This document shows, one piece after another, positions 30,948 through 62,865 of a DNA stretch of 64,000 bases. The stretch is taken from contig LBSX01000007.1 of assembly GCA_000990355.1 (NCBI GenBank), positions 441-64,440 of the forward strand, read 5' to 3'. This DNA comes from Candidatus Magasanikbacteria bacterium GW2011_GWC2_37_14 (GTDB lineage: Bacteria; Patescibacteriota; Patescibacteriia; Magasanikbacterales; UBA922). Both the position numbers and the translations under genes were made by a program. Every line of letters begins with the position of its first letter. The first letter of the stretch is position 1. The notes below the pieces were generated by a model that was not told where the DNA came from, did not search any database, and worked only from the letters and a program-made list of their open reading frames with translations.

Positions 30948-30988
30948 ATAATTGTCCTGTCATTCCCGCGCAGGCGGGAATCTAAAAA

Positions 30989-31393
30989 TTATTTAACTAA
31001 TTTACCTGCACCTAATGGATTATAATTATTAATAATTTCATAGCCATCCCAATAGCCATCGTCATCAGTGTCTACCTTTGTTGGATCAGTTTTATAAACT
31101 TCTATTTCTTCTTTATCAGTTAAACTATCACCATCAGTATCAGAATCACGATTACTAGTGCCAATTTCTTTTTCTTTGGTATCCAAAATTCCGTCACCAT
31201 CCAAATCATTGGGATCTAATTTTAATTTTTCAAAAACTACTGTTTCCACTGGCTTAATTTTATTATCTAATACTACATTATTTTTATTCCTTAAAAGTAG
31301 CCAAAAACCAGCCAAGATTCCTGCTCCCAGTATTAAAACCAATAAACTAATTAAAATAATTCTTTTCATATTATTTTTTAAGTAGTAGGACAA
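30989..31393 (-). CDS. membrane-anchored protein with TSP3-like repeats (paralog 3)
   Basis: LDGDGILDTKEKEIGTSNRDSDTDGDSLTDKEE...DTDDDGYWDGYEIINNYNPLG. Its first codons overlap the end of the giant gene. Confidence 0.6.
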   Translation of the reverse strand: MSYYLKNNMKRIILISLLVLILGAGILAGFWLLLRNKNNVVLDNKIKPVETVVFEKLKLDPNDLDGDGILDTKEKEIGTSNRDSDTDGDSLTDKEEIEVYKTDPTKVDTDDDGYWDGYEIINNYNPLGAGKLVK

Positions 31394-34300
31394 CTCTCCA
31401 AAACATCCGCACTTACTTTCACATCACATTCATCAGTTCTAATCACCCCATCTGCATGGTCAACATCTACTGGAGCAATAATCGGCGCTGTATTATTTCC
31501 CCTAATCTTAAACACATACCAATACTTAGCCCGTGCATTACTACTAGTGCCCGAGGCATTACGAATACTAAAAGTACGGGTTGGTTTGTAAATTGAATAA
31601 GCTGGTATTTGATTTGCATGAGCCGTATATACTTCTACTTGCAAATTACTTCTCTTGGCGGGCCCACCAATAAAATTAGTCAAAGCACTCACCGTAAACA
31701 CATAATCTTTGCCAGCTCCTGCATCTACAGTAAAAGATTGTACATAAATTTTTGGAGTATGCACTTTGGCATGTACACAAACCAAACTTGTACAGCCATC
31801 CGGAACCCAATATTCATCTGCATTTTTAATTATTGTGCCAAAAGTTGTTGTTGGCAAACGATTGTGTGTCCATTCAGTCGGACTATTAGTTTTTATTACA
31901 TCACCCACAAAACCACCTAATTTATTTTCTTCTTCGCTCGTCCATTTTACTACTATTCTTACCGTGCTTGTTGGCACAGCTGGAGACATTATAACATCAT
32001 TCTCAATCCTAAGCGATTCATCATTAACTGGATAATCAAAAATATCACCATAACCATTTTTCCAAAAATCATTTGCAGTACCACCTCCCGAAACTTTGGT
32101 TTGCAAACCATTTTCATTAAAAAATACTTTATATTCATCTTTACACTGCAAATTTGTTTCTATACCCTTTGGTAAAACGTCTTCAACTGTAATTAATGAA
32201 CTTGATTTATAAAAATAAGCATAATTAGTAGGTACACCATTTTCATTAATATTTAATTTAATTTGTTTAAAATAATATAAATAACCTAAAACATTGGGAT
32301 AATTTCTATACAAACTAACCAATTCAACTCCATAAATACTGTCCCAATTAAACCCTTGCTCAATCATTGGATTTAAAATAGCAATCATTGGATTGGCACC
32401 ACCGTCTACTCTGTCCATTTCAGCACAATTTATACAATTATTTTGTAAATCCAGACAATTGTTTTCACAACTAAAATTTCCTTTATCATTAACATTACAA
32501 GACTTATTTGCTTCACCTACTACTTTGGTGGTAGGGTTATAAGTGCTACTTACTACCGTACCATCACTTTTTACATCACATTTTTCAAAAACTGGAGTGG
32601 TACTACTCACAATTACATCAATCTTACCATTACCACAATAATCAGTTGTTTCTTTAGTAAAGACTTTTTTACAATCACCCGAACACCAGGTGCAAATTTT
32701 GCCTTTGCCATATTCTGGTGTACATTCCAAACCATTTTGTGCTCCCATATCGCAAGCCTCTTTTAAATTTTCATCCACAATTCCGTTGCCACAATAATTT
32801 TCCTGGCCACTTTCTAGTGCGCAACTAATAGAACAGCCATCGCCATTTCTTGGTAAGCATTTTCCTTTACCAATTCCCGCGCAAGTATTATCAGTAGTAC
32901 AAGGTTTTTTGTTTTCACATTGCATACCGTCGTCACAAGTTTCACTACCATTCACTAATCCATCACCACAAAAAACAGTTGCTTTTAATTTACAATTATT
33001 TTGGCATTTGTCTGTATCTACATCATTGCCATCATCACACTCTTCCTGGCCAGCGTCTAGTACTCCATCACCACAATAAGAACCATATTTCTGACAATCC
33101 CACGAACAAGAATATTCTTTATTTTTGGCATAACTGGCAATAATCGGCACACAACGTCCTTTATATTCAGAGGTAGTTTTTACATCATTCAAAAAGTCAT
33201 TTACATTGCTGTAACCTGACAAACCCTCATCAATATTTATACTTTGGGTATTAATGTTACAATCATCATTTGTACGACAAACAAAATTAGTATTTAGGGC
33301 ACAATAACCTATTTTATCTGTACAAATATCATTTCTTTCCTTGGCCCAACCTGTTTTGTTGGCATCATTCAAATCCTGCAATGCCTGCATTAATATTACC
33401 GAAACTTCATCACAAGCATCACCAATACCATCACCATCAATATCATTTTGTAATGGGTTATAATTATTTGGACAATTGTCCTCTGTGCCACATTTTTCAT
33501 CTTTATCCACATCATTTTCTGCACAATTAGGATAATAATCACAAGCATTACCGAGTCCGTCACCATCCGAATCTGGCCCATTTGATTTTTTTAGTTGCAT
33601 TTCAGAAGGTAAACAAAAAGGCTGTCCCGCTGGACAAGAAGAACTCATAACACTGTTAGCATTTTTGGGACAATTATCCAAATCATTTATTATTTCGTCA
33701 CCATCACAATCTAAGCCTGGAAAACTCGAAAGATTACACTGTATTTTTAGTGGATCTTCTAAACCTAAATCAAAATTAATGATATGCGATTGTAAAGTAT
33801 TTATGTCTACCAACTTATCCAAATTATATTGATTAGCATAATTAAGCCAATTTCCTAAACCACTAATTAAACCACCATTTACATTAACAGAAGTCTCACT
33901 ACAATTACCTTGAAACACCCAATTCCCAGTTCTAATTGAAGCTTTGTTTTGTGCCAAAGGAGTAGTGGAAGTAAAGTCACACAACTCCAGCGGTTTATTA
34001 TTTGCATCTTTATCTATCAGACTATCTATACTACTATAAACAATATTATGAAAATTTCCACAATAAGCTTGATGTGGCCCCATACAAGCCACCACCCCAA
34101 CGCTATTTTCTCCCGCACAATGCCCATAAGTACCATTTAATTGTCCTTCATCACAAAACTCCGCACTTTCTTTTTCTCCATTACCACAAGTAAAATCCGC
34201 CTGGCAAGCACCATAACTCCAAGTACAAGTATTGGTACAAGTACGAGCCGCTTTGGTAGCACCGGCGCAAGCAGTCAAAACACCACCAATTTTTGTTTGG

Positions 34301-37300
34301 GCTGTTAATTCATTCTTTCCTGGTGGTTCACATTCTTCTCCTGGGGCGACAATACCATCACCGCATTTTTCGCCAAAAGCTCTAAAAGGAGTTTCACTAT
34401 TGCACCAAGGTGTGGTAGTAAAAGTACTAGTATTAATTTTTTCTTCCACAATATTACTACTTAGAGCAAAAAACTCTAATGGGGAATGTAATAAATAACT
34501 CTTGGTAGAAGAAACATAATTATATTCATAAATATTGGAAAATACCGGGCAATACACTGTGGAACTAGGGGCATACCAGCAAGTTTGTTTTTCTGCTCCC
34601 AACCCTGCATCTGTACAACTAGTCCAGGCATTTACTGGATCTTGTGGTAAAGTGCCAACCTTGGCTCCCAATGTATTATTCCAAGAAGGCCAGAGCGACA
34701 AGGTAGCTCCAGGAATAAAAGTCCCGCCTGGCAAATTTCCTTCAAAAGTAACTTTATTCAAATTACTAGTAAAATAACTAGCTAATTTATTTTGCATTCC
34801 CGCAATATCATTCAAACGACGCAAATCACGGAAAAATTTGGTTTTGGCATTGGAACAAATTCCCGAAGTATTTGTTTTAATATTGCCATTTGTTTCTCGA
34901 CATTCAAAGTCTGTATTACAAGAAAATTGATCATTAATATTATCTTGATTATCAAATAGTGTACCATCATTTAAACAATATTTATGATCGCTAATATTAA
35001 TATTAAATTCCAAAGAACCTAAAATTTGTTCCAAAACTTTTTTGGTATTGGCTTGTGCACCTTTGTTTAAACTTATTTGATAAATATTATTCCACAAAGC
35101 ATAATCATGGCCCGTGGTAGTTACCAAATTAAGTGCATTTATATAATAATTGTCACCATCTTGTACTGCATCAAAGCCGGCCAATTCTACTCTCTTGGCA
35201 TTTTGAGTATTGGGAAATCTTTGGGGACTGGTATACCAATCATAGGCCGATAAACGATCAGGATTTTGAAATATTTGTATACCAATTACATCATCGTTAA
35301 TGTTACTAAATAACAAATATCGGCGTAAGGTATCATCTGTAAGTGTAGGATTCATTATCTCTTCTACTTGTTCACCACCGCCAGTACATTGGTCAGCAAC
35401 ACTACTCGTTCCAACTCCACTACAAGTATCTGCTACCAAACTAGCAGGAGCAGCACCCACACAAGTATTAACAACTCCAGAAATTTTCCAAATAGGATCA
35501 AAAGGTACACAGTTCTCACCAGCATTACAACCAGTAGCGTCAGTACAAAAACGATAAGTTGAAGCATAATCTGGTGGATATTGGCCAGTTATTGTACAAT
35601 ATTTACTTTCAGTAACAAGATGTCTAAATTTGCAACTCTTATCCTTATAATATTGAAAATTATAAGCACCACCATATTTACTACAAGATACATACAAAGA
35701 ACTCTCACCAGGCAATACATACCAATCTGTTGTCGGGCAGTCAGTATCAACATTACAAACAGTTGACTGATTATTTGACTTTAATGAACAAGCACCTGGC
35801 TGTGCTACTGAATAATCAGGACAATCGGCACTAGTAGTACAACTTGTACTTGGACTGTGGACACATTTTCCAGGGGTGGCAGTGACTATTGGTGGACAAC
35901 TAGCATCAGTTGTACAACTTGTACTTGGGTTCTGGGCACACTGTCCGGGTACCACAACAATATTAGTCCCAGTATCTTTTTCAATTACTGGCAACAAATT
36001 CATGAATGGTAAGTCATCGGTGGTGGTGCCCGAACGACCTGCATCGGCACAATAACTTAAACTAAAATTATATTTATTATCCTTTAATGGCAGCCAACTA
36101 TCCTCGGTTTCTGGTTCTGGCCAAGGACGTTCACAAAATTTAGCAGTAAGCTCGGTACGTCCAGTAAATATTTTTCCAACCTGATTATTGGTAAGACTTA
36201 AATCATGGGTAACTTTGGCTTGAGCTACAGCTATCAACGACCCTTCTACTTGTCGTGAAGCAATATCTACACTGTCACTCGTGGCATCAAGTGGATTATC
36301 CGAATCTGGAATTGCAAAAACACGATTGTTTGCTGGGGCCCAATGCCAAGTCCAACCATAAGCTGGTGGTAAAGAAACAATTATTTGTCCATTTTCACTT
36401 TCGGCAAAAGAATCAAAAAATTCCGAAGTATTGGCTTTTTTATACCAAGCCTTTTCTGGACTAACTGTTACCTTGTTAATTTTACAAACATCTTTGCCTG
36501 TTTTAAATAACCAAACATCATCTAACTGGTCATTATTTTCTCCATCTTTGGCTCGGATACCTACTCCCCGCACGTCTTTAATGCCACTGTTTCCACCTTT
36601 TAAGATTACGGCATATTCGGTATCTTTTTCTAATAAATTATTTATATAAATTGCAATTGTGGTAGTATTTACAAAAGTTTCATTTCCTACAGTAATTTCT
36701 TCATAACGAACTTTTGACTGCACACCCACACTACCCTCACACCACACTACACTTGCAGGAGTAATAGTAGTGGCTACCGCTTGATCGTTGGTAAATAAAC
36801 TAACAAAAAATAATTTTATTTTCTGCCAAATGTTATTTAAAAAACCAAGCAATTTAGTATCTTGTTCCAAAGCATCTATTCCCATTAATTCATTAGCCCA
36901 AGCTGTACGATCAATAGTATTATTATTAGCACAATTATAGGTGGAACTAGTAGTGCCTTTTAGTAACACAATGTTATCTAATACTGTTTGTTTGTCAATT
37001 TCATTATTAAAAGTTGCTTCTAGATAAGTATTAAGACAAACTCCTTCACTACCCTCCTCAAAACCAGCACCATCAATTGGGTAAACTGTATTTCTTACCG
37101 GACGATAATAACAACAAGAATTTTTACCTACACCAAAAGTATTTACTTCTTGGGCACCATCGGCATCACCCGGACAATTATTATACCAGCCAGCAAAATC
37201 TCCATATTCTGCTTGGGTCTCAAATTCTTTATAACCACACTGTAAATAATATTTACCAGTACCAGTTTTTTGTTCTGCTGTTTGTAAACCTACTTTATCA

Positions 37301-40300
37301 CCATTAGCGTTGGTAAAAGAAATAGCTTTGGCATTAATTGGTGTATATTGGTCGTCAGTTGCTGGGTCTACCTCACCTTCACCAACAGCTGTGGCTACTT
37401 GCACGGGGTTTTCTCCTAAATTTTCGCCCGACAAACTAACTTCACAAAATCCATATTCACCCGAACCAGTTTCTCCATCACCACAGAGCGAAGGTTGTGT
37501 ATAATTTGGCGAAGAACCGCGCAAAGTACAATCTGGCCGACACCACTGTTCATTTGTGTCACATTTTAAATCACTCACATCTAAATTTTCCTCATCATAA
37601 TCTTCATTACAAAGATTTTGCAACAAACAGCTGCTATTACAAACTTTGTTTGCTGGTTGAATAGTAGTAAAAAGGGTATCACCTTCATTGTGAACTTTTA
37701 TTTTCTTGGCAACATCATCAATAATTTCACACTCTTCACCAGATTCTACTATATCATTGCCACAAATACTTATGGCGTTATTACAAGCCTGGGGAACATC
37801 TGCAGCTGTTTGTTCATCAGCTGCTTGTTCATCACACCAAGCCTGCGAAAGGGCTGTGCCAATATGTAAACAATTACTAGAACAACCTTTTTTCGTTGCC
37901 GTATCTTTGGTATCACATTCTTCACCCAATGTTACCGAACCACTACCACACCAAGAAACAGTTACCTGTCCAGCTGGTTGTGTAGATGCGGAACCTTTCC
38001 AAGTGCAATTATTACTTTTACAATAATTTTTTTGATCCATATCTCCTGGGTCACATTCTTCACCTAGAGCAGTAGAAACAAATCCATCACCACAAAGTCC
38101 AAGATTAATTCCAACCGTGGTAGTAGTTAAATTATTTCCCGTGTGCAAACAATTATAACCACAACCTGCTTCGGTGTCCGGGTCATCAATATCACAATCT
38201 TCACCAGCGCCTACTTCACCATCTCCACAGTAAGTTGGCACTTCAATTAATTTTTTGTCACTGCCCAGTGGCTTACAGACTGGACTGCAAAAAGAATTTA
38301 AAGGATCGCCAGTAGAAAAATTAGAAATAGTCGCTACTTCGGTAACATCAGCGGTCCATTCCCAACCAAAACTCCAGGGATTAAGATCTTGTCCATAGGG
38401 ACTACAACTATCGGGCTTGGTTTTTGGTAAAGACAAATATTTAGTTTTTTCTCCGATTAAAAACGAAGTAAAATTATTTGGCACTACTTCTACTTTTTCG
38501 GCTTTGCAAGGGGTGTCATCATTTTTGGTTCTAAATTTCCAGGCAAAAGCTTGTAAATCATTACCGACTTGGATTGAACCATTGGCTTTAAAAGCCCCAA
38601 TGGCTTTTATTTCACTTGTTAAACGCACTAAATACCAAGAATTTTTTACCAAATAAGGATCACTCACATTTATGCGCAAAGTATTGTAAGAAGACATGCT
38701 CTCATCAATTGAAATTAAATCATTCTGTTCATCCAATTTATCTTCGCTACAAAGTTCATCACCACACATATAAAATTCCAAACCATCAGCAAAAGTACTA
38801 GTTACCATCATTTGATTAAATTGCGCGCCAATACCAGCATTTATACAAGCTTCCTCACAATTTGGCCAATAAGAAATTACTTTCGGATCAGACAAATCCA
38901 CTACCAAAGTACTAGTGCCGGTAATAGTAGTTAAGTTATCATCAGTAACATTTTGTAAAGTATTGGTAGTGGCAGTAATTTTTACATTCCAAGGAGTGGT
39001 ATTGGACCACGCAATAATTTTTGCACGGCTATCTATATAACGCGGAGTTAATTTATTGTCACTAGGGTCACTCCCTCCCCGAGAAATTGTACTGCTTACC
39101 CAAGATTCATTATCCGTTTGCCAATTCCAGCCATATCCATCCACATTTAATACTGAACATTTTTGACTGCCCCGACCCCAAACATAATAAAAATAAGGTT
39201 GAGCTGGCGGATGCGGGTTAAAAGGATTAACCAAATCCTGTGGATGAGAAAAATCTTGCACCACACCCAAAAGATGAGTTACATAATTATCGGGAATAAT
39301 CCCAGCCGAAGCTAAAGTACAATTACCATCACCAGTCTTAAAATCAAAACAATAAGCAGTACCATCACTGCAGGGCTTGGTTTTTTTCAAAGGTTGATTA
39401 AATTCTACAAAATTACCCAATGTTTCTCTACGTTCGGCAGAAAAAATATTATCTTTTAATTCTACATGATACCAAGTATTAGAAACCAAATTTGTGGTAC
39501 CATCATGAATATACAAAACTGGATTATTATAAATCGGACCATTTACCTCTACTTCTTCTTTGTCGCTACAATCAATATCACCATTCTTTGCTTCAGCACA
39601 TTTGTATACTGTCACTTTGCCAACAAAATTATTTTTCATCGGCATGTTAAAACGCACCGCAATACTGGCATTCAAACAAGCATTAGTACCACCTTCCCAA
39701 TTTTGCCAAGGCACTGGTGTGGGAAAAGGCACAGTAACAGTTCCCTTACTCCAATTAACTTGGTCACAAACTTCCATTACTTCTGGCAAATGAGGAATTA
39801 AACCAGTAGTAAAACGCCACACATAACCAGCACTATCGGGCTGACCTTTACAACTTAGAGTACTTAATTTCCATTTACCAGCTTCTGCCCCCTCGCTACA
39901 ACACTGAAACCCAGGCATAGCTGTGTTACTATCTCGACAGTCATTAACCAAATAATTTACACTATTTCCAATTCTGTTATTTTTATCTTGTACTTTAATA
40001 GCACCGGTTTCCATGGTTAAGCCATTTTCATAAGGAATAATTGTTTGAATTTTTTCACCATCAATTGATTTGGAATAAGCAAAACCAACAGCATTTATTG
40101 CCTCACTATTTTCCAACCAACCACCACTGGTATTAGGCGACCAAAATTTAACCGTTGGTGTATCGGAAAAATTAATCCCATATAAATTTAAAAATTTTCC
40201 CGCTGGCAAAGGTGCCGGACCAGAAGCTGGAGCAATCGCACAAATTCCGGGCTGTGGCTCTCCTACCATCAAACCAAAAGTATTTTCTCCACTACTAGCC

Positions 40301-43300
40301 AAATTAAAATTATTTTTTAAAATTAAATTTACTTCATCTAATGTTTTTTCTGCTACTTGTGTTGAATGAATAAATTCTAACTTGTTAATTTTTCCATAAA
40401 ATAATCTAGAATTGTCATCTAATGAAGAAATAATATTACCTATTCTAAATGGCAAACTCTCTTTTTTTATTAAATCCGGATCTAAACCCAACTGGATTTT
40501 CGGAATAATTGGTAATGGATTACCCCCTTCACTTAAATAAACATTCATTTTATTATCCTTAATTTCAATCTTTAAATTATAAAGATTGGTAGAATTGTTT
40601 AATAAAGCCACATTCGCTCCATAATCACGCATCGACTTATCAAGAAAAACAGCCGAATGAATAAACAAATATCTTTTTACAATACCATCATTTTTTACTT
40701 GTTCATTTATATACACTTGTTCTTTGCCATCATTCCTAAAAAATAAAAATCTATATTTCATCCACAAATCACCACTTTCAATAAAACCAACATCCGATGA
40801 GGTTGTCAAATTATCTAGTTCAATATCAAATTCAATGGCAGTATCATTTAACAAAGAATAATCACCATTTGTGTCATTGTAAACTTTTGCTTCTGCCAAA
40901 GTATTTATACTATTACCAAGATTTAAACCAATGATATCCGCTAAATCAGCACTCTCGGTTACTATTTTATAAACTGTTTTACCACCAATAAATTTGGTAT
41001 CAATATTTTTTGGTATATTAACTATCACTTGAGTATCTTGCCAATTTTCCGAACACTGTGGTGGTAAACCAACAGTGGTTAATTCTTTACATTTAGTAGA
41101 ATCATAATTTATTGCACAAGCTTTGGCGTCGTTACTATTACCTGCCAAATAAACATGTCCACTAGAACCAAAATTAGACCCATAAATGGTAATTAAACTA
41201 CCAGGGGTTGTGGTAACTGGATCAATAGAACTAATAATTGGTGTTTTAACTGAACCATCACTCAAAATTTCAAATGGCACGCCATTACTATTTTCACCAT
41301 TCACTGTAGCTACTACCCCAACTTTACCTGCACTCAAAACTGGCACAAAAGACCTTACCACAGCATCAGACCAACCAGCACCAACAATTATGGCTTGTAC
41401 CCCACCAAATTTCATGGTGCTACCACTTTGGGTATCACCCAATCCTTTGCCCTGTATTACTACTTGCGCCTTAGATTCTGCTTCTCCTGGTGTAATCGCA
41501 CAAAGACCAGGACGTATAGCGTCATTTTTTAAAAACCAACCGTCATTTGGCCCTGGCATTACACCCCATTCAGGAGTAGTAAGCCCAGCAGTGTCATCAC
41601 TTGGTTTAATTGATTCGCCAGCAATCGTTAAAGTTTTAGCTGATTCTAATTTAATATCACTCAAAAAATTACGATCTAAATCAATATCAGCGGGCACTTC
41701 AATAATTACCCATTGGTCATGCCAAACATTTGTACCTTCTCCGCAATCAGCCAAATTTACATCTAGCCAATCTCCAGCACTTACTTCTCCATCTTGATTT
41801 TTATCTATTCCAAAACTCACTTTGCCTTTGGTACTACCAAAATTTCTTCCCAAAATTGTTACCCAATTACCAGCTCCCCCGTCCATTGGTTCTACATTTT
41901 CAATCAAAGGAAAGGGGCGACAAATTTTGTCATTAACATTTCCTGCGCCAACAGGGTCAATACATTTAAAACTGTAAGCGCAATCAAGGTCATCATGGCA
42001 CGAAGCCCCATCACCACCTCCACAAGAACCACCAACATCTGTCCCTGTTTCATTGCCATTTTTTATTCTATCTTTGCAATGAGCTCCAACCAACATATAG
42101 GTACTAGTAACTTCGGCAAACTTACTATCAATATCATTTCCTCGCAAAGTAAGAGAAATACGCTGTGGAACAATTAAATTTTCTGGAAAAAATACACGTT
42201 GACTAAAATTATAAGGATTATCTATAGGCGCATCCGAAGTGCTAGCAGGGCCATTAAAATAACCATAAATTCTCTCTCCTAAATTTTCAAAACTTCCATT
42301 ATTGAGTGTTAAACCTACATAACCAGCGCCACTTTCATCACTTTCACTGGTTCCAAAATAATATGCACTACCAACTGGCAAACGATCATCAGCTATCTCT
42401 TCTCTCACTCCACTTTTGTTTACCATTTCTACAACTAAGGGAGTTAAAATTGGGGCTAGACTATCTTTTACCGCACTCGTAGTTACGGTAAACTCTGCTT
42501 CGGCACTAAAATCTCCACAACTAGTTTTTAATTCCAAATTATAACCATCAATATCTTTGATATTGGGGCTAACAATTACTTGGTAAGTACCAGCTGGCAA
42601 ACAACTGGTGCTATCTTCACATTTTGTTTCACCAATATAAGTAGCCTGTATTAAACTATTGGCATCTGCCAACTCTCTACCCAAAACTTCAAAACTAAAT
42701 TCTTCGGTAGAGGTAACATTATTACGTAAAATTGTTAGATAATTTTTTATTTCATTACTACTCATGTTTTGCAGTTTTCTGCTAAATGTTACCCGAATAA
42801 CTGCATTATTCATTTGGGTATTGGTAGTTTTTGGGGTAATGCTTTGTACGACAAAATGTTTGTCTTCACAAGAACATAGAGTAGGAAATTCTCTGCAAAA
42901 AACACTCTCACATTCATCACGATTTTCCAAAACATATTTTAAATCGCGACAAGACAAATTGTCTCCATTGCCATCACCAAAACCTGTAGCGTCGGATAAC
43001 TGATTAATTACAAACTGAGCAATAGCCAAAGCTGAAAGAATAATCATTATACCAATCGCGGCATTAATTAAAATCTTTCTTGCCTGTCCAACTTTTTCTT
43101 CATTTCCCGCCGAAGTCATATAAACAAAACCACCATAAAGCATTAAGCCTAGGGCAATAATACCAAGTAAACCCAAAATAGCTCGGATAATCTGGGCAAT
43201 AATTAAACGGATATCAGTAGCTGGAAGATCTAAACTACCCCCGATTCTGTTTAAGCCAAAAGCATCTTGAGCAAAAACATTTGTTTTGAATAACAAAAAC

Positions 43301-43377: not shown

Positions 43378-45549
43378 TTATTTGAAAATAACTGTTTGAG
43401 AAATATCTTCGGTTTTTAAAGCCGACAAACATTTAGCAACTGTGGAGGTAACTTGTAAATCAGTATCGGTTGTTTGTACACAACCAGTATCTTTGGCACT
43501 CGCTGTTTCTACACCTACACAATTTTCTGTTGACAGAATACTACCATCATCTTCGTTGTAAGTAACTATACAAGCAGTTGATTGTCCTTGTGCCCCTTGT
43601 ACCACCGGGCCTCTTCCTGGATAAACACAATTTTGTACCAAATTTTTTATTGTACTAGGGATAGAAGGAAAATAATACAAATCTGCATTGTTTGGCCCAA
43701 AAATTCGGTGGTCCAGTTTGGTAACAGTTTTTCCAGCAAAAGTTTCGGAAATTGGACAAAACCAAATTGGCTCTACACCATTTACCGCAACCGGATATTC
43801 GTCTAATTTTATTCCATAAACAGAGTCTAGCCACATCCGACTATTAAAATGTATTTTTAAAGGTGCATTGTCAGTTACATTCTCCTCATCAATATCTGGT
43901 TCCACAGTTTGGATATAAGGTGAGGTACGATCTATTTTATTTATAATATTAAAATTCCAATAAAAATTATCTGGATTTCTTTCATTATCATTAATTAAAA
44001 GTGGATTACTAATTGTCGGTTTATGCGGTGTAGCTAATCTACCTTGGTTATTGTCATCCAAAGCATTACTCGCCATATCCATTGCACCCGAAAAAGGCAT
44101 ACCCTCAAATGGTAATTGTGCCCCTGGCATTAAATCTGCCGTACGTACCAGTGCCTTAAAGGGTTTGGTACAATTTTCTGCGTTAGAGGGGCAATCCAAT
44201 GGCAAACAATACATAGTTTCGCCACAACTATTTTGTCCACAAGCCAAACTTGAAACAAATTCCAAAGTACGGTAACGATTGGATAATTTCCAATTACCCA
44301 AAGTAGTAGTTGGAGTAACTCCAAAATTAGTATTTAAAATAACATTGGCAAAACTAGTGGGGTCAGCAATTATTTGTCCTTGCACACCAGTAGGATCCAT
44401 GGCCTCACTAAAATTTATTTGGATAATAGAATTACGTGCCGGTGTATCTTTGCCTGTTTCATTGCCAGTGGGATAAGTATCTACTACATATGGTGGAGTA
44501 AAATCTATTTGAGTATTGGTCTGAAAATTCCATTCATAATCCTTACGGCCAATATTCTTGGAAAACACTCCAGGTGTATCTCCTGGGGCTGGTTCTTTGT
44601 ATAAAATATTATTGGTTAAACGCACACTATACCAAACATCAGTGGTTTCACTGCCAATAAAATCATAAGGTTTAAAAACAAAAGTACGAGTATTTTTTTG
44701 TGCACCATCTTCATAAATAGTAAGAGCACTAGCCGTTACCAATTGCCCACCATTGGCAGTAATACTACCAAGATTGGCAAAATAAGTGTCAGTTGCCATA
44801 AAAATACCAATTGTACTAGTATTCATGGCGTCACATTCTGTAAGCCTGTTAATTTTATTATCTTTATTAACATCCAAGCAATCACCATAATAAGGAATAG
44901 CAGGAACCGCTCCACCAAACTCACAAGTAGTGGTAGGTTTATTATCTCCACCCCAACAACTACTATTCGTATTTACAATAATCGAAGCTGGATCAATTGG
45001 CTCAAAAAAAGTAACAACTATTGAGGTATTGCGTGGCACAGCTGTTTGATCACGGAAAGGATAATGGTCTTTTACCACTTGGCCCAAAGCGCCACTACCA
45101 GCAAAAGTGTTAATAATTGGCACCCCAGCAGCACCACGCCCGTTGTTTTGATTGCCGTCCGAAAGCATGTTAATTATAAATTGAGCAATAGCAAAAGCCG
45201 ACAAAATTATTGCCAAGCCAATCACGGCATTGATCATAATTTTTTTGCCTTTTGACACTTCTTCTTCGTTGCCACCCGAAGTCATAATCACATAACCAGC
45301 ATACATCATTATTACCAAAGCAATAGTTCCCAGCAATCCAAAAATTGCTCGAATGATTTGAGCAATAATTATACGAATATCAGTTTTTACCAAACCAATA
45401 CTATTTTCTACTGGTTGCAAACCAAACAAGTCATTGTTTTGTGCCTGCGCTGGCAAAACTTGCCAAAACAAAAAAGCCACCACAAAAACTAACAGCCCAA
45501 GGATGGCGGCTTTTAACCAAGAATGATTTTTATTTATCCAAGGCAGCAT
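43378..45549 (-). CDS. 723-aa secreted protein sharing the N-terminal membrane-hairpin domain of the giant protein, with Big_5-like (..IQINFSEAMDPTG..) domains
   Basis: N-terminal residues 50-125 align residue-by-residue with the giant protein (IRIIIAQIIRAIFGLLGTIAL.. vs IRLIIAQIIRAILGLLGIIAL..). Confidence 0.8.
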   Translation of the reverse strand: MLPWINKNHSWLKAAILGLLVFVVAFLFWQVLPAQAQNNDLFGLQPVENSIGLVKTDIRIIIAQIIRAIFGLLGTIALVIMMYAGYVIMTSGGNEEEVSKGKKIMINAVIGLAIILSAFAIAQFIINMLSDGNQNNGRGAAGVPIINTFAGSGALGQVVKDHYPFRDQTAVPRNTSIVVTFFEPIDPASIIVNTNSSCWGGDNKPTTTCEFGGAVPAIPYYGDCLDVNKDNKINRLTECDAMNTSTIGIFMATDTYFANLGSITANGGQLVTASALTIYEDGAQKNTRTFVFKPYDFIGSETTDVWYSVRLTNNILYKEPAPGDTPGVFSKNIGRKDYEWNFQTNTQIDFTPPYVVDTYPTGNETGKDTPARNSIIQINFSEAMDPTGVQGQIIADPTSFANVILNTNFGVTPTTTLGNWKLSNRYRTLEFVSSLACGQNSCGETMYCLPLDCPSNAENCTKPFKALVRTADLMPGAQLPFEGMPFSGAMDMASNALDDNNQGRLATPHKPTISNPLLINDNERNPDNFYWNFNIINKIDRTSPYIQTVEPDIDEENVTDNAPLKIHFNSRMWLDSVYGIKLDEYPVAVNGVEPIWFCPISETFAGKTVTKLDHRIFGPNNADLYYFPSIPSTIKNLVQNCVYPGRGPVVQGAQGQSTACIVTYNEDDGSILSTENCVGVETASAKDTGCVQTTDTDLQVTSTVAKCLSALKTEDISQTVIFK

Positions 45550-48879: not shown

Positions 48880-48892
48880 TTTTAATTTACTG

Positions 48893-49722: not shown

Positions 49723-49875
49723 TGTAGACCTCCTGCCCACGAATCCCTCCCGCGTCGTGGCCCTGTGCCAAAACGCGTAAGAAAAACCAAATTCTTGGTT
49801 GCTCTTGGCGCTTTGGCACAAAAAAATAATGCATTACCCATTTTTCTCCTTATTTTTTAAAGAACAATTAACAAA

Positions 49876-53271: not shown

Positions 53272-55620
53272 CTACAACTCATCCAAGTCTTTTAAAAAGC
53301 TTACCACATTATTTCGTACTTTCGCACTATTCGTAATTTGCACATCATTGTCATCCTCACTCACATATTCTATTTCATCTTGTCCTGAGCTTGCCGAAGG
53401 GTCGTCGCCAAACACTGTTCCGCCATTCATTTCACTCTTACCCGCCTGCCATGACTTACCGACAGACATGTCGGGCAGGTCCAATAACTCATTATTTAAT
53501 TCTTCCAAAAACAAACTTGGAGTAGCCAGTACGTCGCCCCAACCACTAGTGAGTGAATAGGTAAGCTGTAAATATTTTTTAGCCCGAGTTACTGCCACAT
53601 AAAACAAACGTCGTTCTTCTTCCAAGCCTCCATTTTCCCGCAAAGCCCGGTCATTGGGGAATTGGCCATTGGTTAAGCCAATAATAAAAACTGCTTCCCA
53701 TTCCAACCCTTTGGCTTGGTGAATGGTAGACAAAACAACTTTGTCGCCACCTCGCTGTAGAGACGCAAAATTTTGCGTCTCTACGTTTGTGTCAACCCGC
53801 CGAAACGACTCTTGTAAAGTTGCCTCTGCTAAAAATGTGTTTAAATCCGGTTGTTGTTTGGCAAACCCAGCTAATTGTTGTAAATCTTCCATTCGTTCGC
53901 GATAATCTGGATATTCATTTTCCAAATATTCAATATATTTTGATTCCAAAATTTGTAAAATTAAATCACTTGGTTTCCCTCCTGCTGATTTCCCTCCCCT
54001 TGTAGCCTTCGCCGTGAGCTCAGGCCGAACGGGGGAGGGTGGGGTGGGGTCTGCATCAACAACTAACATTAATTTCTCATAAATCTGTAAAAAATCATTC
54101 CAGCCTATTTGCGCTTTGGCAGATAATGTAGCTCCTATCTCTCGTAAGTTCCCTCCCCTATGAGGGGAGGGTGGGGTGGGGTTTGTCTCGTCCGAAACCC
54201 CCTCCTCTCCTCCCCCTTGTAGGGGGAGGGACATAATTTTTTCAATAATACGTTCAGCACTCACCGCCCCAATCCCCACTTGCATATTTAATACTCTTCG
54301 CCAAGCCACGTTATCTTCAATATTATTAATAATTCGCAAATATGCCAAAGCATCTTTAATATGCGCCCGTTCAAAAAACCGCACTCCACCACGATAATCA
54401 TAATCAATCCCCCGCTTTACTAATTCCATTTCCAAAGCTTGGCTGTGATAAGCTGCTCTAAACAACACGGCAATTTTACTTGGCTCCACTCCTTCGCTCT
54501 CTAATTCAAAAATACGATTAGCAATATATTCTGCTTCTTCTTTTTGATCGGCAAAAGCTTGCAATTCTGGCTTGGCAAATTTTTCTTTTATGCTTTTTAA
54601 CTTTTTTTCGTATTGATTTAAATTATTACTAATTACATTGTTTGCTAAATCCAAAATATTGGGTGTAGAACGATAATTAGTTTCGAGCTTAAATACTTTT
54701 GCATCTGGGTATCTGCCCTCTCCGCCAAAAGCGGATCCGTCTTTGGCAGAGAATGATAAAATATTTTGAATATCCGCCGCACGAAAAGAATAAATACTTT
54801 GGGCATCATCACCCACTACCAATAAATTTTTGTGCTTTGATGCCAACAAATCAATAATCGAAGCTTGAATTTTATTGGTGTCTTGATATTCATCTACCAA
54901 AATATATTGAAATTGTTCGGCTAACTTATTTTTTATTCCTTGTTCCTTTACCAAGAGCAAATACCAATTCACCAACAAATCATCAAAATCCATCGCATTA
55001 GCTTCTTGTTTGCGTTTGGCATAATCCTCAGCAATGCGCACAATTGTTTCCGATACCGACAAAAAATGTTCATATTTTAAATCCAAGACATCTTCAATGG
55101 TCATTTCACTATTCCTAGCATAAGAAATAATTGATTGTAATACAGCTGGCGAAGGAAATCTTTTTTCTGTGCGATCAATTCCCTCTTGTTTTAAACACAA
55201 TTTAATTAAAGCCAAACTATCTTCACTATCCAAAACAGAAAAATTATTTTTATAGCCTAAAAGCAAAGCATATTTTTTTAGCAATCGATAACCAATATGA
55301 TGAAACGTCCCCGACCACTGCAGGTGTGTCCCCCTCTTGACCTCGAGGGGACCAGGGGGAGTTGCCGAGGTTAAGTCTGAATCAACTAAATTCATCACCC
55401 TCTCAATCATTTCTTTGGCCGCCTTGTTGGTAAAAGTTACTAACAAAATATTTTCTGGTTTTATACCCTGTTCCAGCAAATACGCCACGCGATAAGTAAT
55501 GGTGCGGGTCTTGCCACTACCTGCTCCGGCCAATACCAAACATGGGCCATCGCCCTCATACACAACTTTTAATTGTTCGACATTTAATTCTTTTTTAAAA
55601 TCAATCATATTAGTCGTCAT
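53272..55620 (-). CDS. UvrD/PcrA-family ATP-dependent DNA helicase carrying multiple in-frame GC-rich palindromic insertions
   Basis: Motifs I GAGSGKTRTIT, Ia TFTNKAAKEM, II DEYQDTN, III GDDAQSIYSFRAAD, V/VI VLSTIHQAKGLEWEAVFIIGL and RRLFYVAVTRAKKYLQL. Extra Pro/Gly-rich segments (e.g. DLTSATPPGPLEVKRGTHLQ, NPTPPSPHRGGN, DPTPPSPVRPELTAKATRGGKSAGGKP, VETQNFASLQ, SASSGQDE) coincide with palindromes. Confidence 0.9.
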   Translation of the reverse strand: MTTNMIDFKKELNVEQLKVVYEGDGPCLVLAGAGSGKTRTITYRVAYLLEQGIKPENILLVTFTNKAAKEMIERVMNLVDSDLTSATPPGPLEVKRGTHLQWSGTFHHIGYRLLKKYALLLGYKNNFSVLDSEDSLALIKLCLKQEGIDRTEKRFPSPAVLQSIISYARNSEMTIEDVLDLKYEHFLSVSETIVRIAEDYAKRKQEANAMDFDDLLVNWYLLLVKEQGIKNKLAEQFQYILVDEYQDTNKIQASIIDLLASKHKNLLVVGDDAQSIYSFRAADIQNILSFSAKDGSAFGGEGRYPDAKVFKLETNYRSTPNILDLANNVISNNLNQYEKKLKSIKEKFAKPELQAFADQKEEAEYIANRIFELESEGVEPSKIAVLFRAAYHSQALEMELVKRGIDYDYRGGVRFFERAHIKDALAYLRIINNIEDNVAWRRVLNMQVGIGAVSAERIIEKIMSLPLQGGGEEGVSDETNPTPPSPHRGGNLREIGATLSAKAQIGWNDFLQIYEKLMLVVDADPTPPSPVRPELTAKATRGGKSAGGKPSDLILQILESKYIEYLENEYPDYRERMEDLQQLAGFAKQQPDLNTFLAEATLQESFRRVDTNVETQNFASLQRGGDKVVLSTIHQAKGLEWEAVFIIGLTNGQFPNDRALRENGGLEEERRLFYVAVTRAKKYLQLTYSLTSGWGDVLATPSLFLEELNNELLDLPDMSVGKSWQAGKSEMNGGTVFGDDPSASSGQDEIEYVSEDDNDVQITNSAKVRNNVVSFLKDLDEL
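53757..53784. repeat. palindromic element, family GTAGAGACGCA...TGCGTCTCTAC (copy inside the helicase CDS)
   Basis: gtagagacgcaaaattttgcgtctctac. A second copy, gtagagacgcattgcaatgcgtctctac, is intergenic at 61055-61082. Confidence 0.7.
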
Positions 55621-56480
55621 TCTACCACCAAAATTACCTTGCGTCCATTTTTTACATCACCATTATTCCAATCATGAATAGCATTCATTAAATCTTGATA
55701 TTTATATTTAAAATCTTTGCCAAACTGTGTGCCTGGATCATTGGTAATAAAATTTTCTTCATCATAACCTTTAATAATCAATGCATGGTAAATTGGTCCA
55801 CCATTCCGAAAATTTGGATTAGGTAACACTTTACCGTTCGCTACTACCAACACTGGTTTATTATTTGCAATAAATTTTTTTATATCATCAACAGTTGGAT
55901 TTTCAATAATTTTAATTTGTCCTACTAAATTTAAATGAAAATATTCCTCTGTCATTTGTTTGATATCAACAATTGGGATACTTAACCCCCAGCCCTTATC
56001 CTCTTCCCATTTTACCATTTTCAAAATTTCATCACGCGAAAAAATAGGGCTTAAATTATAACCTTTATAATAGGCATCAAGCATAAGTAAAGCCGCTTCT
56101 TCACACGCATCTTGCCACGGCTGTTCCCAATTTTTTTCTGGCGCTTGTGAGGTAAATGGAACATTCAAAATAAATTCTTTTGGGAGTATTGTGCTGTCAT
56201 TCCCTACTTCGGTACCAGATGTCGAGCTTGCCTGCCGAGGAGGCAGGGAATCCCTTGCTTCTGTAATTTTGACCGTGCTTGTAATGCTTTCAGGTGTTAA
56301 TGCTTTAATGTCTTCACTGCTATCTGTTATCTGTTGTTTGCTATCTGAAGATACTGTTTCATAATTAATTATTATCTCATCATTCACAAACATTTTTCCA
56401 AAAATATAAATCGTCCCTACCAAAAAACACCCGCTCAAAATCAGGCAAATTGTGTTTAATATTGTATATTTTGACTTCAT
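55617..56480 (-). CDS. C39-like (papain-fold) peptidase domain protein with N-terminal membrane anchor
   Basis: VPFTSQAPEKNW...DACEEAALLM (catalytic Cys) and ...IYHALIIKGYD (His). An in-frame palindromic insert lies in the linker. Confidence 0.65.
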   Translation of the reverse strand: MKSKYTILNTICLILSGCFLVGTIYIFGKMFVNDEIIINYETVSSDSKQQITDSSEDIKALTPESITSTVKITEARDSLPPRQASSTSGTEVGNDSTILPKEFILNVPFTSQAPEKNWEQPWQDACEEAALLMLDAYYKGYNLSPIFSRDEILKMVKWEEDKGWGLSIPIVDIKQMTEEYFHLNLVGQIKIIENPTVDDIKKFIANNKPVLVVANGKVLPNPNFRNGGPIYHALIIKGYDEENFITNDPGTQFGKDFKYKYQDLMNAIHDWNNGDVKNGRKVILVVE

Positions 56481-57229: not shown

Positions 57230-58450
<1,221 letters not shown>

Positions 58451-58451
58451 C

Positions 58452-58477
58452 TGTCATCCTGAACTTGTTTCAGGATC
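58452..58477. repeat. palindromic element, family GTCATCCTGAAC..TTCAGGATC (tgt-uppP spacer)
   Basis: ctgtcatcctgaacttgtttcaggatcc. Related copies: 61088-61114; 62832-62856 and 30958-30982 (gtcat(c/t)c(c/t)cgcgcaggcggg(g/a)atc); 56196-56254 and 61854-61892 are longer variants inside CDSs. Confidence 0.65.
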
Positions 58478-60345: not shown

Positions 60346-61041
60346 TTGGCAATAACACTTTATAACTATTATATGCGCTCATACAAATATCTCGCCTTCA
60401 TCACCACTTTCTTTTCTGTAGTTCTAATTTTATCCAACATTGCCAGTAGCAAAATTCTTTCACTTGGTTGGTTTAGTTTTGATGGTGGCACAATTCTCTT
60501 TCCGCTCGCCTATATCTTTGGCGATGTGCTTACCGAAGTCTATGGTTATGCCAATTCCCGTCGAGTAATTTGGACTGGTTTTATTATGAATGTTTTAATG
60601 GTTTTAGTTTTTTGGATTGTTGGAATTTTACCACCTGCCATGGACTGGAGTAACCAAACTGCTTTTGATGCGATTCTTGGTGTGGTTCCACGCATTGTTC
60701 TTGGTAGTTTGTGTGCTTATTTAATTGGTGAATTTTTAAATAGTTATATCTTGGCAAAATTAAAAGTAAAAACTGCGGGTAAATATTTTTGGCTTCGCGC
60801 CCTTGGTTCTACATTGGTTGGAGAATTTTTTGATACTACGGTATTTTTATTAATTGCCTTTGCTGGTGTACTACCTTGGAATTTAATTTGGATTATTTGG
60901 CTTTCTAATTATATTTTTAAAGTTGGTATAGAAATTATTTTCTTACCGCTCACCTACCGTGTGGTCGCTTTCTTAAAGAAAAAAGAAAATGAAGATTATT
61001 TTGACAAAGATACTAATTTTAATCCACTGACATTGTCGTAA
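60346..61041 (+). CDS. queuosine-precursor transporter, YhhQ/Vut_1 (DUF165) family
   Basis: 6-TM protein with LFPLAYIFGDVLTEVYGY and GEFLDSxxF-like motifs. Confidence 0.75.
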   Translation: MAITLYNYYMRSYKYLAFITTFFSVVLILSNIASSKILSLGWFSFDGGTILFPLAYIFGDVLTEVYGYANSRRVIWTGFIMNVLMVLVFWIVGILPPAMDWSNQTAFDAILGVVPRIVLGSLCAYLIGEFLNSYILAKLKVKTAGKYFWLRALGSTLVGEFFDTTVFLLIAFAGVLPWNLIWIIWLSNYIFKVGIEIIFLPLTYRVVAFLKKKENEDYFDKDTNFNPLTLS

Positions 61042-61201
61042 TGTCGTCACTCACGTAGAGACGCATTGCAATGCGTCTCTACAATAGTTGTCATCCTGAA
61101 CTGGTTTCAGGATCTTTCATAAATTTAAGCATTTTAGTAAATCTGACTAACGGAAAGATACTGAAATAAATTCAGCATGACACACAAAACAAAAACCGGG
61201 T

Positions 61202-61492
61202 TTATGACCCGGTTTTTTTAAATATTGATTCTAATTTCGCTTTTGCTTGATCTGGAGTAGCTGTTACTTGTGCTTCTTTTTTCTTTTGAAATTCTCTTAA
61301 ATCATCTGCAACACTAACACTTGTTCTTAATTTTCCTTCTGTACCAACAACCGGTCGTGTTCTTTCTGCACCAGCTCTTCTCTTTACCACACCAGGTGCA
61401 ACTTGTTCTCCTAACACAGATCTTACTGGCACACCTCTTGTTGCTTCAACAGGTGGCATATGTTCACCTGGTCTACGTGGCATCCAAACCAT
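61202..61492 (-). CDS. hypothetical 96-aa basic protein
   Basis: ORF with moderately elevated G+C. No motif recognised. Weakly supported. Confidence 0.3.
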   Translation of the reverse strand: MVWMPRRPGEHMPPVEATRGVPVRSVLGEQVAPGVVKRRAGAERTRPVVGTEGKLRTSVSVADDLREFQKKKEAQVTATPDQAKAKLESIFKKTGS

Positions 61493-61591
61493 ATATTTTA
61501 AATTAATTGCCTGCCTGCCGATGAGGTAGGGCCTAAATTAGCCAATATTTATTTAAATACCTATATATTATAGCACAAAAATCGCCTTTTG

Positions 61592-62821
61592 TCAATAGAT
61601 AAACATCGCATCACCAAAACTAAAAAACCGATATTTTTCTTTTACTGCCTGCCTGTAACACTCCAACATAAACTCTTTACCACTGCCAGGAGCACTCTTG
61701 TCCGCTGTAGCTTCAGCGAAGGCGGAGACCAACATTAGTAAAGTTGACTTAGGTAAATGAAAATTTGTAATCATGGCATCCACTATTTTAAATTCAAATC
61801 CTGGTTTAATAAAAATATTTATATCACCATGATAGGGCCTAAGTGTCATTGCGAGCCCTGCTCGAGCAGGGCGTGACAATCCCCCAGTTTTATCTTTAAC
61901 CATTGGGATTGCTTCGTCGCCTATGTCGGCTCCTCGCAATGACAAACTCGCAATCCCTTCCAACGTCCTCACTGTTGTCGTACCAACCGCCACCACTCGC
62001 CGACCTTCGGCTTTGGCACGATTAATTTTTTCAGCATTTTCTTCACTAAGTTCAATCCATTCACTATGCATGGTATGGTCTTCCACTTTTTCTGATTTTA
62101 CTGGCAAAAAAGTTCCCAATCCCACATGCAAAGTTACTTCGGCAAATTCCACACCTTTATTTTTAAGTTTTTCAATTAAAGAATCAGTAAAATGAAAACC
62201 CGCAGTTGGTGCTGCCACTGAACCTTCGGGTTTTGCATAAACTGTTTGGTATGTTTCTAATTCATGTGGCTCATCTTTTACATAAGGTGGCACAGGAATG
62301 TGACCATATTTATTGGCTTTAGCTCGTACAATATCGGCGTTATCGGGAAATTGCACCAAAATTGTTCCATCATTTTCTTTAACCAAGGCATCACAATAAA
62401 AATCAGGAGTTTGCCCTGAGCTTGTCGAAGGGGCAAACACCACTCGCATCCCCTCTCGTAAATGTCGCCCTGGCTTAGCCAATACTTTCCACACTCCTTG
62501 ATTTTCCATTTCACGAATTAAAAAAATTTCTATTTCTTTTTTGTGTTCCAATAATTCTTGATTATTTTCTGCTTCCACTAATTTACCAAATAACCGAGCT
62601 TTAAAAACTTTGGAATTATTCCAAACCAACAAATCACCGGGTTTTAAATAATCTATAATATCATAAAAATGCTTGCCCTGAGCGGAATGAAATGAAGCCG
62701 AAGGGTTTTCTTTAATTTTTTTTCTATCAACAACAAACAAACGCGAACTATCGCGTGGCGCAAGTGGATACTGAGCAATTAATTCTAATGGGAGGTTGTA
62801 GTCAAAATCAGTTGTTAGCAT
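61592..62821 (-). CDS. queA: S-adenosylmethionine:tRNA ribosyltransferase-isomerase with two in-frame palindromic insertions
   Basis: MLTTDFDYNLPLELIAQYPL, VAVGTTTVRTLE and FMLECYRQAV. Inserts read APSTSSGQTP (at 62409-62437) and ...TGGLSRPARAGLAMTL... (at 61854-61892). Confidence 0.9.
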   Translation of the reverse strand: MLTTDFDYNLPLELIAQYPLAPRDSSRLFVVDRKKIKENPSASFHSAQGKHFYDIIDYLKPGDLLVWNNSKVFKARLFGKLVEAENNQELLEHKKEIEIFLIREMENQGVWKVLAKPGRHLREGMRVVFAPSTSSGQTPDFYCDALVKENDGTILVQFPDNADIVRAKANKYGHIPVPPYVKDEPHELETYQTVYAKPEGSVAAPTAGFHFTDSLIEKLKNKGVEFAEVTLHVGLGTFLPVKSEKVEDHTMHSEWIELSEENAEKINRAKAEGRRVVAVGTTTVRTLEGIASLSLRGADIGDEAIPMVKDKTGGLSRPARAGLAMTLRPYHGDINIFIKPGFEFKIVDAMITNFHLPKSTLLMLVSAFAEATADKSAPGSGKEFMLECYRQAVKEKYRFFSFGDAMFIY

Positions 62822-62865
62822 AAAATTTCACTGTCATCCTCGCGCAGGCGGGGATCCAGAAATAA

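Follow-up and report, generated by a model that had tools for sequence, protein, structure and literature searches.

The 64,000-nt stretch of DNA analysed here (the window) belongs to contig LBSX01000007.1 of Candidatus Magasanikbacteria bacterium GW2011_GWC2_37_14, a member of the candidate phyla radiation (CPR; Patescibacteria), with whose Tgt the Tgt protein of the window agrees at 100% identity. Its GC content is 36%, and the minus strand holds most of the genes; uvrD/pcrA, tgt, queA, yceG, ndk and clpP are among the genes of the window. Between and within the genes lie short GC-rich hairpins that recur in near-identical form, and that can be sorted into families A, B, C and D. These hairpins are probably selfish palindromic elements of the repetitive extragenic palindrome (REP) class, of at least four families, which have colonised this Magasanikbacteria genome.

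The initial annotation of the window had drawn attention to several such hairpin families, and had likened them to REPs or miniature transposable elements with inverted repeats (MITEs) with family-specific stems and variable loops. All the hairpins that it listed are present in their places, and they recur far more often than expected by chance: perfect, GC-containing hairpins with a stem of at least 7 bp and a loop of 3-8 nt number 47 in the window, as compared to about 9 in Markov shuffles. Several metagenome assemblies, made independently, contain the window sequence at 100% identity, so that the hairpins are no artefact of a single assembly. The annotation had also remarked that copies sit right after stop codons, which is indeed the case: one copy begins 1 nt past the stop codon of tgt (58452), and another 13 nt past that of Vut_1 (61055). 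It had assigned the repeats to intergenic DNA, and this part had to be given up, since the copy at 56228 and many others lie in coding sequence (Table 1).

Table 1. Hairpin elements, GC-rich inserts and a GIY-YIG gene in the window
Feature	Position	Strand	Description
Family A, NTS type	30958-30982	+	TGTC tag, stem ATTCCCGC/GCGGGAAT, loop GCAG, C tail
Family A, CCTGAA type	58452-58477	+	Loop CTTGT; downstream of tgt
Family A, CCTGAA type	61089-61114	+	Left half of head-to-head dimer (tags outside)
Family A, GCTGAA type	61157-61182	-	Right half of head-to-head dimer; one G.T wobble; absent from the initial list
Family A, NTS-like	62832-62856	+	One T.G wobble; between yceG and queA
Family A, degenerate	61844-61881	+	TGTCATTGCGAG-type, within queA coding sequence; left half of intragenic head-to-head pair
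Family A	61907-61944	-	TGTCATTGCGAGGAGCCGACATAGGCGACGAAGCAATC, within queA; right half of head-to-head pair; encodes LSLRGADIGDEAI; missing in relative L127
Family A-like, split	56195-56252	+	TGTCATTCCCT ... AGGGAATC around family D hairpin, within C39 peptidase gene
Family B	61055-61082	.	Perfect 28-nt GTAG...CTAC palindrome downstream of Vut_1; adjoins family A dimer
Family B	53757-53784	.	In frame within uvrD/pcrA, peptide VETQNFASL
Family C, composite	6133-6168	+	Downstream of clpP; 43 nt deleted relative to ~85-nt form
Family C, single hairpin	15667-15687	.	CCTCCCCTT-ata-AAGGGGAGG
Family C, three-hairpin composite	54151-54232	+	In frame within uvrD, peptide SLPLQGGGEEGVSDETNPTPPSPHRGG, G-run GGGGAGGGTGGGGTGGGG
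Family C-related insert	53974-54048	-	75-nt, GC-rich, in uvrD; CCCACCCCACCCTCCCC ... AGGGGAGGG
Family C, hairpin	58255-58277	.	In frame within tgt
Family D	50160-50180	-	CCTGCCT-GCCGGCG-AGGCAGG; downstream of ndk, before ndk terminator
Family D	61510-61530	+	One G.T pair; ~20 nt upstream of 96-aa minus-strand open reading frame
D-like insert	63709-63729	-	CCTGTCT-GCCGAT-AGGCAAG; yceG N-terminus; missing in relative
GC-rich in-frame insert	55327-55371	-	uvrD; missing in relative
Other GC-rich inserts	54721-54750, 53440-53478, 53386-53403		uvrD
Other GC-rich inserts	62411-62434, 61685-61714		queA
Single-domain GIY-YIG gene	48465-48731	-	88 aa; begins right after tRNA-Ile

Four families of palindromes

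Family A consists of TGTCAT, an 8-bp stem, a loop of 4-5 nt, and a following ATC. A structural scan for GTCAT, a stem of 8 bp, a loop of 3-6 nt and C finds five canonical units in the window, with 0.05 expected per shuffled window; folded as DNA, these units have energies of -3.3 to -8.9 kcal/mol and z-scores of about -3 to -4. All five read TGTC-AT, the TGTC being an unpaired tag, and all have 8-bp stems with AT...AT ends, enclosing loops of 4 nt (at 30958 and 62832) or 5 nt (at 58452, 61089 and 61157). The tail begins with C in five of five copies (CTA, CCC, CTT, CCA and CTT, the published consensus being CCA). The unit at 30958-30982 lies between two co-directional minus-strand genes for TSP3-repeat proteins. 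The halves of the intergenic dimer are separated by a 42-nt spacer and may alternatively fold together as a single long hairpin (z = -4.4). Three degenerate or intragenic units (61844, 61907 and 56195) extend the initial list, bringing the complement to five canonical and three degenerate units in 64 kb, with one intergenic and one intragenic head-to-head dimer.

Such an anatomy is known from the REPs tagged with CGTC, often in the form TGTC, which have stems of 8-9 bp starting with A-T, loops of 4-5 nt and a short tail, mostly form head-to-head dimers, and include Neisseria dRS3 and the Rickettsia palindromic elements (RPEs) RPE-4 and RPE-6 (PMC3733652, Di Nocera, De Gregorio & Rocco 2013). 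Family A shares the TGTC variant of the tag, the A-T-started 8-bp stem, the 4- or 5-nt loop, the C-started tail and the head-to-head dimers; the match is one of described anatomy, rather than of the CCTGAA and GCTGAA stems with the consensuses of the four published families. The host is distinct, as CPR bacteria were outside the survey of Di Nocera and co-authors.

A second point of reference is the Neisseria Transformation Sequence (NTS), CGTCATTCCCGCGMAVGCGGGAATCYRG (Chenal et al. 2025, PMC11893778). It is the target of SsnA, a 94-aa single-domain GIY-YIG nuclease that binds the NTS hairpin only as single-stranded DNA, and only on the tagged strand, and cuts it a few bases upstream; the critical positions are the C that directly follows the palindrome and the three bases upstream of it, and SsnA homologues with Ssn-related motifs (SRMs) are widespread (PMC11893778). 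The copy at 30958 equals the NTS consensus save for two mismatches, at the first and last positions, where one is allowed, and it has the upstream GTCAT and the post-palindrome C at the critical positions. Judged by sequence, family A is a member of the CGTC/TGTC-tagged REP superfamily, and these are the same sequences as the later-named SRMs. The published SRM regular expression was tried as a detector of such units and was too narrow for the CCTGAA type, recovering a single copy (62832); the CCTGAA variants would accordingly form a sub-type outside that pattern.

Family B is GTAGAGACGCA-N6-TGCGTCTCTAC, with a 12-bp stem and two exact copies in the window (0.00 expected), and folds at about -13 kcal/mol (z = -7). 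Its ends and stem place it among the GTAG-ended GC-rich palindromes with stems of 6-13 bp, and it is, as far as these sequence features go, a GTAG-type REP, the kind handled by REP-associated tyrosine transposases (RAYTs) with HUH and Tyr motifs. It differs from the classical GTAG REPs in that its GTAG is paired (GTAG...CTAC), so that there is no unpaired tag, and the perfect palindrome has no orientation. In the syntenic relative L127 (GCA_049287025.1, with 74-91% amino acid identity to the window proteins), the gene Vut_1 is followed only by a spacer and a terminator, at the place where the window has family B and the family A dimer.

Families C and D are untagged relatives without a known enzyme. 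The full family C unit is about 85 nt long and is made of three hairpins, CCCTCCCCT-nnn-AGGGGAGGG, GGGTGGGGTTT-n10-AAACCCCCTCC and CCTCCCCCT-nnn-AGGGGGAGG; the composite folds at -27 kcal/mol (z = -4.6). The three-hairpin form with other loops is seen in uvrD (54151-54232) and in queA of L127, and the copies in uvrD (54151-54232, 53974-54048) and tgt (58255-58277) add to those initially listed. Two other assemblies of the same population, L252 and L253, have 43 extra bases at window position 6151/6152, which restore the full unit. These bases (L252 6634-6676, L253 8058-8100) interrupt sequences that are otherwise 100% identical over 15 kb, and their absence from the window reflects either a genuine polymorphism for a deletion or an assembly that collapsed at the palindrome in the source of the window. 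Four runs of G are present in the G-rich flank of family C, AGGGGAGGGTGGGGTGGGG (54162-54180, 54030-54048; L252 6629-6650), and within this flank lies the 13-mer GGGGAGGGTGGGG, which is the core of the G-quadruplex in the MYC promoter; the flank might be able to switch between a hairpin and a quadruplex fold. The consensus of family D is CCTGCCT-GCCGnnG-AGGCAGG; CCTGCCTGCCGNNGAGGCAGG is matched by three copies, each with no more than one mismatch, as compared to 0 expected, and the copy at 61510 folds weakly (z = -0.75). Text searches of the literature returned no description of families C or D.

In-frame copies within genes

Codon alignments with L127 reveal GC-rich in-frame inserts in window genes that are missing in this relative. 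The gene uvrD (782 aa in the window and 677 aa in L127) has seven inserts of at least 5 aa, the family C composite and the family B palindrome among them. There is one family C hairpin in tgt (403 and 388 aa); the inserts in queA (409 and 388 aa) include the TGTCATTGCGAG-type A units paired head-to-head at 61844-61944; the C39 peptidase gene (287 and 278 aa) has the split A-like unit around a D hairpin; and yceG (290 and 286 aa) has one D-like insert. Absence of the inserts from close orthologues is seen also in a 25-sequence Tgt alignment. The 10-aa insert of Tgt lies between the invariant Cys338 of the CxCxxC motif and the invariant Arg353, and the relative P0006, which is 87-90% identical, reads CSTC-KN-YTRAY at this point. 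The CxCxxC cysteines presumably are zinc ligands, as in characterised TGT enzymes.

Other Magasanikbacteria have different inserts, in the same and in other protein loops, and the DNA of these inserts likewise forms hairpins. In relative L128, two NTS-type A units in inverted orientation are found inside tgt; in L129, tgt has three tandem CCCCCCTT-tact-AAGGGGGG units, and another gene has an exact family B palindrome. A, B and C units thus occupy non-orthologous sites in relatives, and copies are found across genomes (see below): this is the family expansion that the initial annotation had named as the test of its reading.

In-frame intragenic palindromes are a hallmark of Rickettsia RPEs, and the window resembles the RPE case by arrangement, with an AT-rich genome, in-frame GC-rich palindromes in conserved housekeeping genes, and orthologues without inserts. 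The likeness is one of arrangement; the host lineage is different, and most units are 20-40 nt long, or about 85 nt in the composite, whereas RPE-1 has 100-150 nt. Yeast mitochondrial GC clusters are also GC-rich palindromes dispersed across very AT-rich DNA, coding regions included; they are organellar and eukaryotic, have other sequences, and are not known to be linked to GIY-YIG or RAYT enzymes of this type.

REPs within genes had been described before, especially in repair genes such as those of the UvrD type (PMC3733652), and the window copies are like CGTC REPs both in this respect and in lying just downstream of open reading frames (ORFs). What sets the window apart from these is its high intragenic density, with seven inserts of at least 5 aa in one uvrD. 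The NTS copies of Neisseria are only 2% intragenic, whereas the window copies often are.

Other genomes and candidate enzymes

We scanned 185,579 species genomes for the family A pattern TGTCATCCTGAA-N(3-7)-TTCAGGATC. At least 119 genome stretches, belonging to many phyla, contain the exact CCTGAA element, as compared to about 1.4 matches expected by chance if base frequencies are equal, and no more than about 62 if the composition is skewed. The hosts among the matches listed include Gracilibacteria, Saccharibacteria, Nomurabacteria and other Patescibacteria, Alpha- and Gammaproteobacteria, Bacteroidota, Elusimicrobiota, Gastranaerophilales, Treponema and Chloroflexi. The 839 kb of listed loci hold 228-235 tagged hairpins, in which the GCTGAA-type stem ATGCTGAA is seen 22 times; the loops CTTGT and TTTAT of the window are the commonest loop types, and close pairs are arranged head-to-head in 53 cases, as against 14 tail-to-tail and 13 tandem (p = 2e-6). 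The C of the tail, present in all 235 elements, is imposed by the scan. Families B and C are absent from these 839 kb, and family D occurs there once.

Conservation of the hairpin is strand-specific. In the 235 listed elements with at most one non-Watson-Crick pair, that pair is G.T or T.G on the tagged strand 15 times and C.A once (p = 0.0005), which speaks for a fold under selection on a single strand of the DNA rather than for an mRNA structure.

The exact CCTGAA element also occurs in 30 IMG/VR viral contigs (L254-L283), none with an adjacent GIY-YIG or RAYT gene; in those contigs that have multiple copies (L254, L258, L263, L268 and L271), a single orientation is kept throughout.

A small GIY-YIG ORF is found in 6 of the 119 listed family A loci. 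Five of these ORFs form one family, with 41-59% identity and the C-terminal motif REKQLKNWHRxWKxNLI. The family A hairpin is directly upstream of the gene in L085 and L102, on both sides of it in L081, and on both sides in inverted orientation in L091, within about 60 nt of the gene in all four; in L075, the nearest copy is 1.3 kb away. The hairpin-flanked loci have the SRM-ssn-SRM architecture of PMC11893778, with the exact CCTGAA element flanking small single-domain GIY-YIG genes. The five proteins are putative members of the Ssn family.

Family B is found in at least 120 metagenome contigs with GC contents from 0.28 to 0.67; in the contigs listed, the six central bases are usually palindromic themselves, which results in a perfect 28-nt palindrome. 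When the ORFs up to 1.5 kb away from the hairpin are grouped by clustering, the largest cluster has the HUH motif MPNHxHxI and the Tyr motif YxDHIIRN. Its sole NCBIfam match is NF047646 (REP-associated tyrosine transposase), with E from 5e-10 to 5e-12, under the curated cut-off, and the only Pfam match is to Y1_Tnp, also sub-threshold. Such RAYT-like genes are present in 13 of the 120 listed contigs. Unlike the flanking arrangement of RAYT systems, the family B hairpin in the listed RAYT-bearing contigs is inside the RAYT ORF.

In these ORFs the palindrome sits between the HUH and Tyr motifs, in frame and sometimes in tandem, and gives the peptides VETQNFASL or VETHGRASL (contigs L138, L139, L166, L169, L170, L182, L190, L191, L193, L225 and L241). 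We know of no earlier description of a REP palindrome lying between the two motifs of RAYT-like genes.

The enzyme associations of the two families are reciprocal: the 119 listed loci of family A have six GIY-YIG and no RAYT genes, and the 120 of family B have no GIY-YIG and 13 RAYT genes (Fisher p = 0.014 for GIY-YIG and 0.0002 for RAYT). RAYT-like genes, of the kind that the initial annotation had proposed to look for, thus accompany family B in other genomes; for family A, the partner enzyme is a GIY-YIG nuclease instead.

The studied genome has GIY-YIG genes of its own. The protein of the tRNA-Ile-abutting gene (48465-48731) matches PF01541 over residues 2-68 with 35.9 bits (cut-off 22.6), and its 88 aa agree with the size of single-domain Ssn proteins (cd10448, about 90-100 aa). 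A k-mer homologue search with this gene found four relatives only, and there are no family A hairpins in the syntenic relative L005 or in the distant L007. As the cognate Ssn of family A, this gene is unsupported; it is UPF0213-like and has no flanking hairpins. A second gene, about 4 kb past the right end of the window, encodes 78 aa as read here and 68 aa in the source annotation, and its product scores 8.8e-14 against the profile of the hairpin-flanked GIY-YIG family.

Upstream of the first gene, in the region 48732-48966, there is a truncated tRNA-like fragment (48822-48881). The second (L250 5660-6080) lies between, on one side, a duplicated 21-nt 5' piece of tRNA-Lys(CTT) together with a long GC hairpin and, on the other, the intact tRNA-Lys. 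The location of both genes at tRNA genes suggests insertion into tRNA genes.

Proposed mobility of the palindromes and alternative explanations

The REP/MITE reading of the hairpins is supported by these observations, and we infer that the elements are, or once were, mobilised in this genome. The strand of family A with the unpaired TGTC tag would fold, as single-stranded DNA, into the 8-bp hairpin; small GIY-YIG Ssn nucleases would bind this hairpin and cut a few bases upstream, and family B would be processed by HUH/Tyr RAYT transposases. New copies may arise when an element is inserted or copied into DNA that is exposed in single-stranded form. The copies that survive would be those at the least harmful sites, namely the gap of a few bases that separates a stop codon from the following gene or terminator and, in frame, tolerant loops of proteins.

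Several observations weigh against this. No canonical Ssn-type or RAYT gene is present in the window or in the 10 kb past its right end, and an SRM-flanked ssnA is likewise missing from these 74 kb; no RAYT-like ORF is found in the window, L250 or L127-L129. Searches of the window and its relatives with RAYT and canonical Ssn profiles gave a single weak match, to the ORF at 48465-48731. No family A unit lies within 500 bp of either GIY-YIG gene of this genome, in contrast to the SRM-ssnA arrangement. UPF0213 BH0048 is the nearer match of the 48465-48731 protein (34% identity, E = 6e-7), as compared to 17-24% identity and a profile E of 3.9e-4 for the hairpin-flanked family. The published SRM pattern fits only one of the five family A copies, that at 62832. 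Target-site duplications, which the initial annotation had suggested to look for, are not visible at any insert boundary in the codon alignments, with their 15-25% divergence and no truly empty sites. Copy counts in the studied genome are those of the 64-kb window. Finally, transposition of CGTC/SRM elements has nowhere been demonstrated, nor has an enzyme for families C and D (PMC11893778, PMC3733652). Since the 74 kb have no canonical Ssn or RAYT gene, the cognate enzymes would be encoded elsewhere in the genome and work in trans, or no longer exist in it.

The best-surviving alternative, which we nevertheless consider unlikely, is that family A units are domesticated host signals: a resident Ssn would cut motif-bearing single-stranded DNA, incoming or exposed, and so tune recombination or transformation near marked genes in a bacterium dependent on DNA uptake. 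There is precedent in N. meningitidis, where Ssn/NTS modulates natural transformation (PMC11893778), and type IV pilus genes (PilM, N_methyl pilins) are found just past the window, adjoining the second GIY-YIG gene. Neither GIY-YIG gene, however, has flanking family A hairpins, and the marked genes, tgt, bacA, queA and a vitamin transporter, have no obvious theme; the intragenic and degenerate copies resemble debris, and families B, C and D would be left unexplained.

Somewhat less probable still is a role chiefly in RNA, with the hairpins acting as terminators, stabilisers of mRNA 3' ends, processing sites or translational insulators within operons. Several copies do lie 1-13 nt past stop codons, in short gaps between co-directional genes, their G.T pairs can be read as G.U, and many REPs have been argued to be transcribed and to lie downstream of ORFs (PMC3733652). 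Against this, copies are found in either orientation with respect to transcription, and many are within coding sequence; the hairpins have no U-tracts, and ordinary terminators follow separately. In the two imperfect family A copies of the window, 62832 and 61157, it is the tagged strand that has the wobble; this strand is not that of the mRNA, and the transcript would have a C.A mismatch instead. The sharing of identical sequences by unrelated phyla suggests that a protein recognises them, rather than that a generic structure is at work. Rfam has no family covering the hairpins: at the gathering threshold the whole window matches three tRNAs only, and in E-value mode the region 61000-61600 gives chance-level matches only.

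A broader proposal, to which we give about the same low credence, would retain mobility and add to it. Family C would be a new untagged class of mobile palindrome, an ~85-nt three-hairpin unit with a MYC-like G-quadruplex run (GGGGAGGGTGGGGTGGGG) overlapping the first hairpin, a hairpin/quadruplex switch, and an enzyme that is neither Ssn nor RAYT; Magasanikbacteria would use REP-type insertion into loops as a routine source of protein novelty, and the tRNA-linked GIY-YIG genes would be the resident mobilisers.

It is quite improbable that the GC-rich patches are by-products of repair or replication (templated insertion, palindrome slippage or gene conversion from a few donors) without a dedicated enzyme: the lack of a transposase or target-site duplication in the 74 kb, the 43-nt indel in the family C array between otherwise identical assemblies, and the accumulation, from lineage to lineage, of different inserts in the same loops of proteins would fit, but hundreds of unrelated genomes have the same 21-28 specified bases, the GIY-YIG and RAYT associations are family-specific and reciprocal, and conserved asymmetric tags and a head-to-head dimer bias are not expected from local repair errors.

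The reading of the hairpins as REP-class elements extends two described superfamilies, CGTC/Ssn-related and GTAG/RAYT-related, to the CPR, and 21-28 specified bases are common to CPR bacteria, Proteobacteria, Bacteroidota, other phyla and viral-classed contigs. The reciprocal association in the listed loci, GIY-YIG only for family A and RAYT only for family B, supports the recent proposal of Ssn nucleases as the missing partner of CGTC REPs. CPR bacteria typically have small genomes, and here dense in-frame insertion is tolerated in essential genes of a genome expected to be small. Such inserts matter for gene calling, for CPR protein models, and for the choice of natural Ssn/target pairs as single-stranded DNA tools. 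New in this work are the host lineage, the dense occurrence of in-frame copies, the test for reciprocal association, and the ~85-nt family C composite.

Other features of the window

Two islands with a GC content of 50-61%, at 6300-9900 and 13500-15700, stand out against the 36% of this genome. In the first lie the minus-strand genes of a TSP_3-repeat protein (6397-7440) and of a Cys-rich protein with Dicty_CTDC repeats (7625-9814); the second extends around tRNA-Asp and gives no Pfam matches. Both look horizontally acquired.

A candidate 6S RNA (49159-49308, minus strand; 35.9 bits, E = 4e-5, under the Rfam gathering score of 46.4) is located in the gene-poor stretch from tRNA-Val to ndk, adjoining a GC-rich 106-aa ORF of doubtful coding status (49521-49841). 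On the minus strand, a 3995-aa protein (31378-43365) and its 723-aa neighbour (43378-45549) both have T4SS_pilin-type N-termini, and their genes share a 229-nt direct repeat of 72% identity (42990-43218 and 45156-45384). In one assembly of this population, an rve-family integrase of an insertion sequence element (L253 612-1496) is found just outside the window, on its left.

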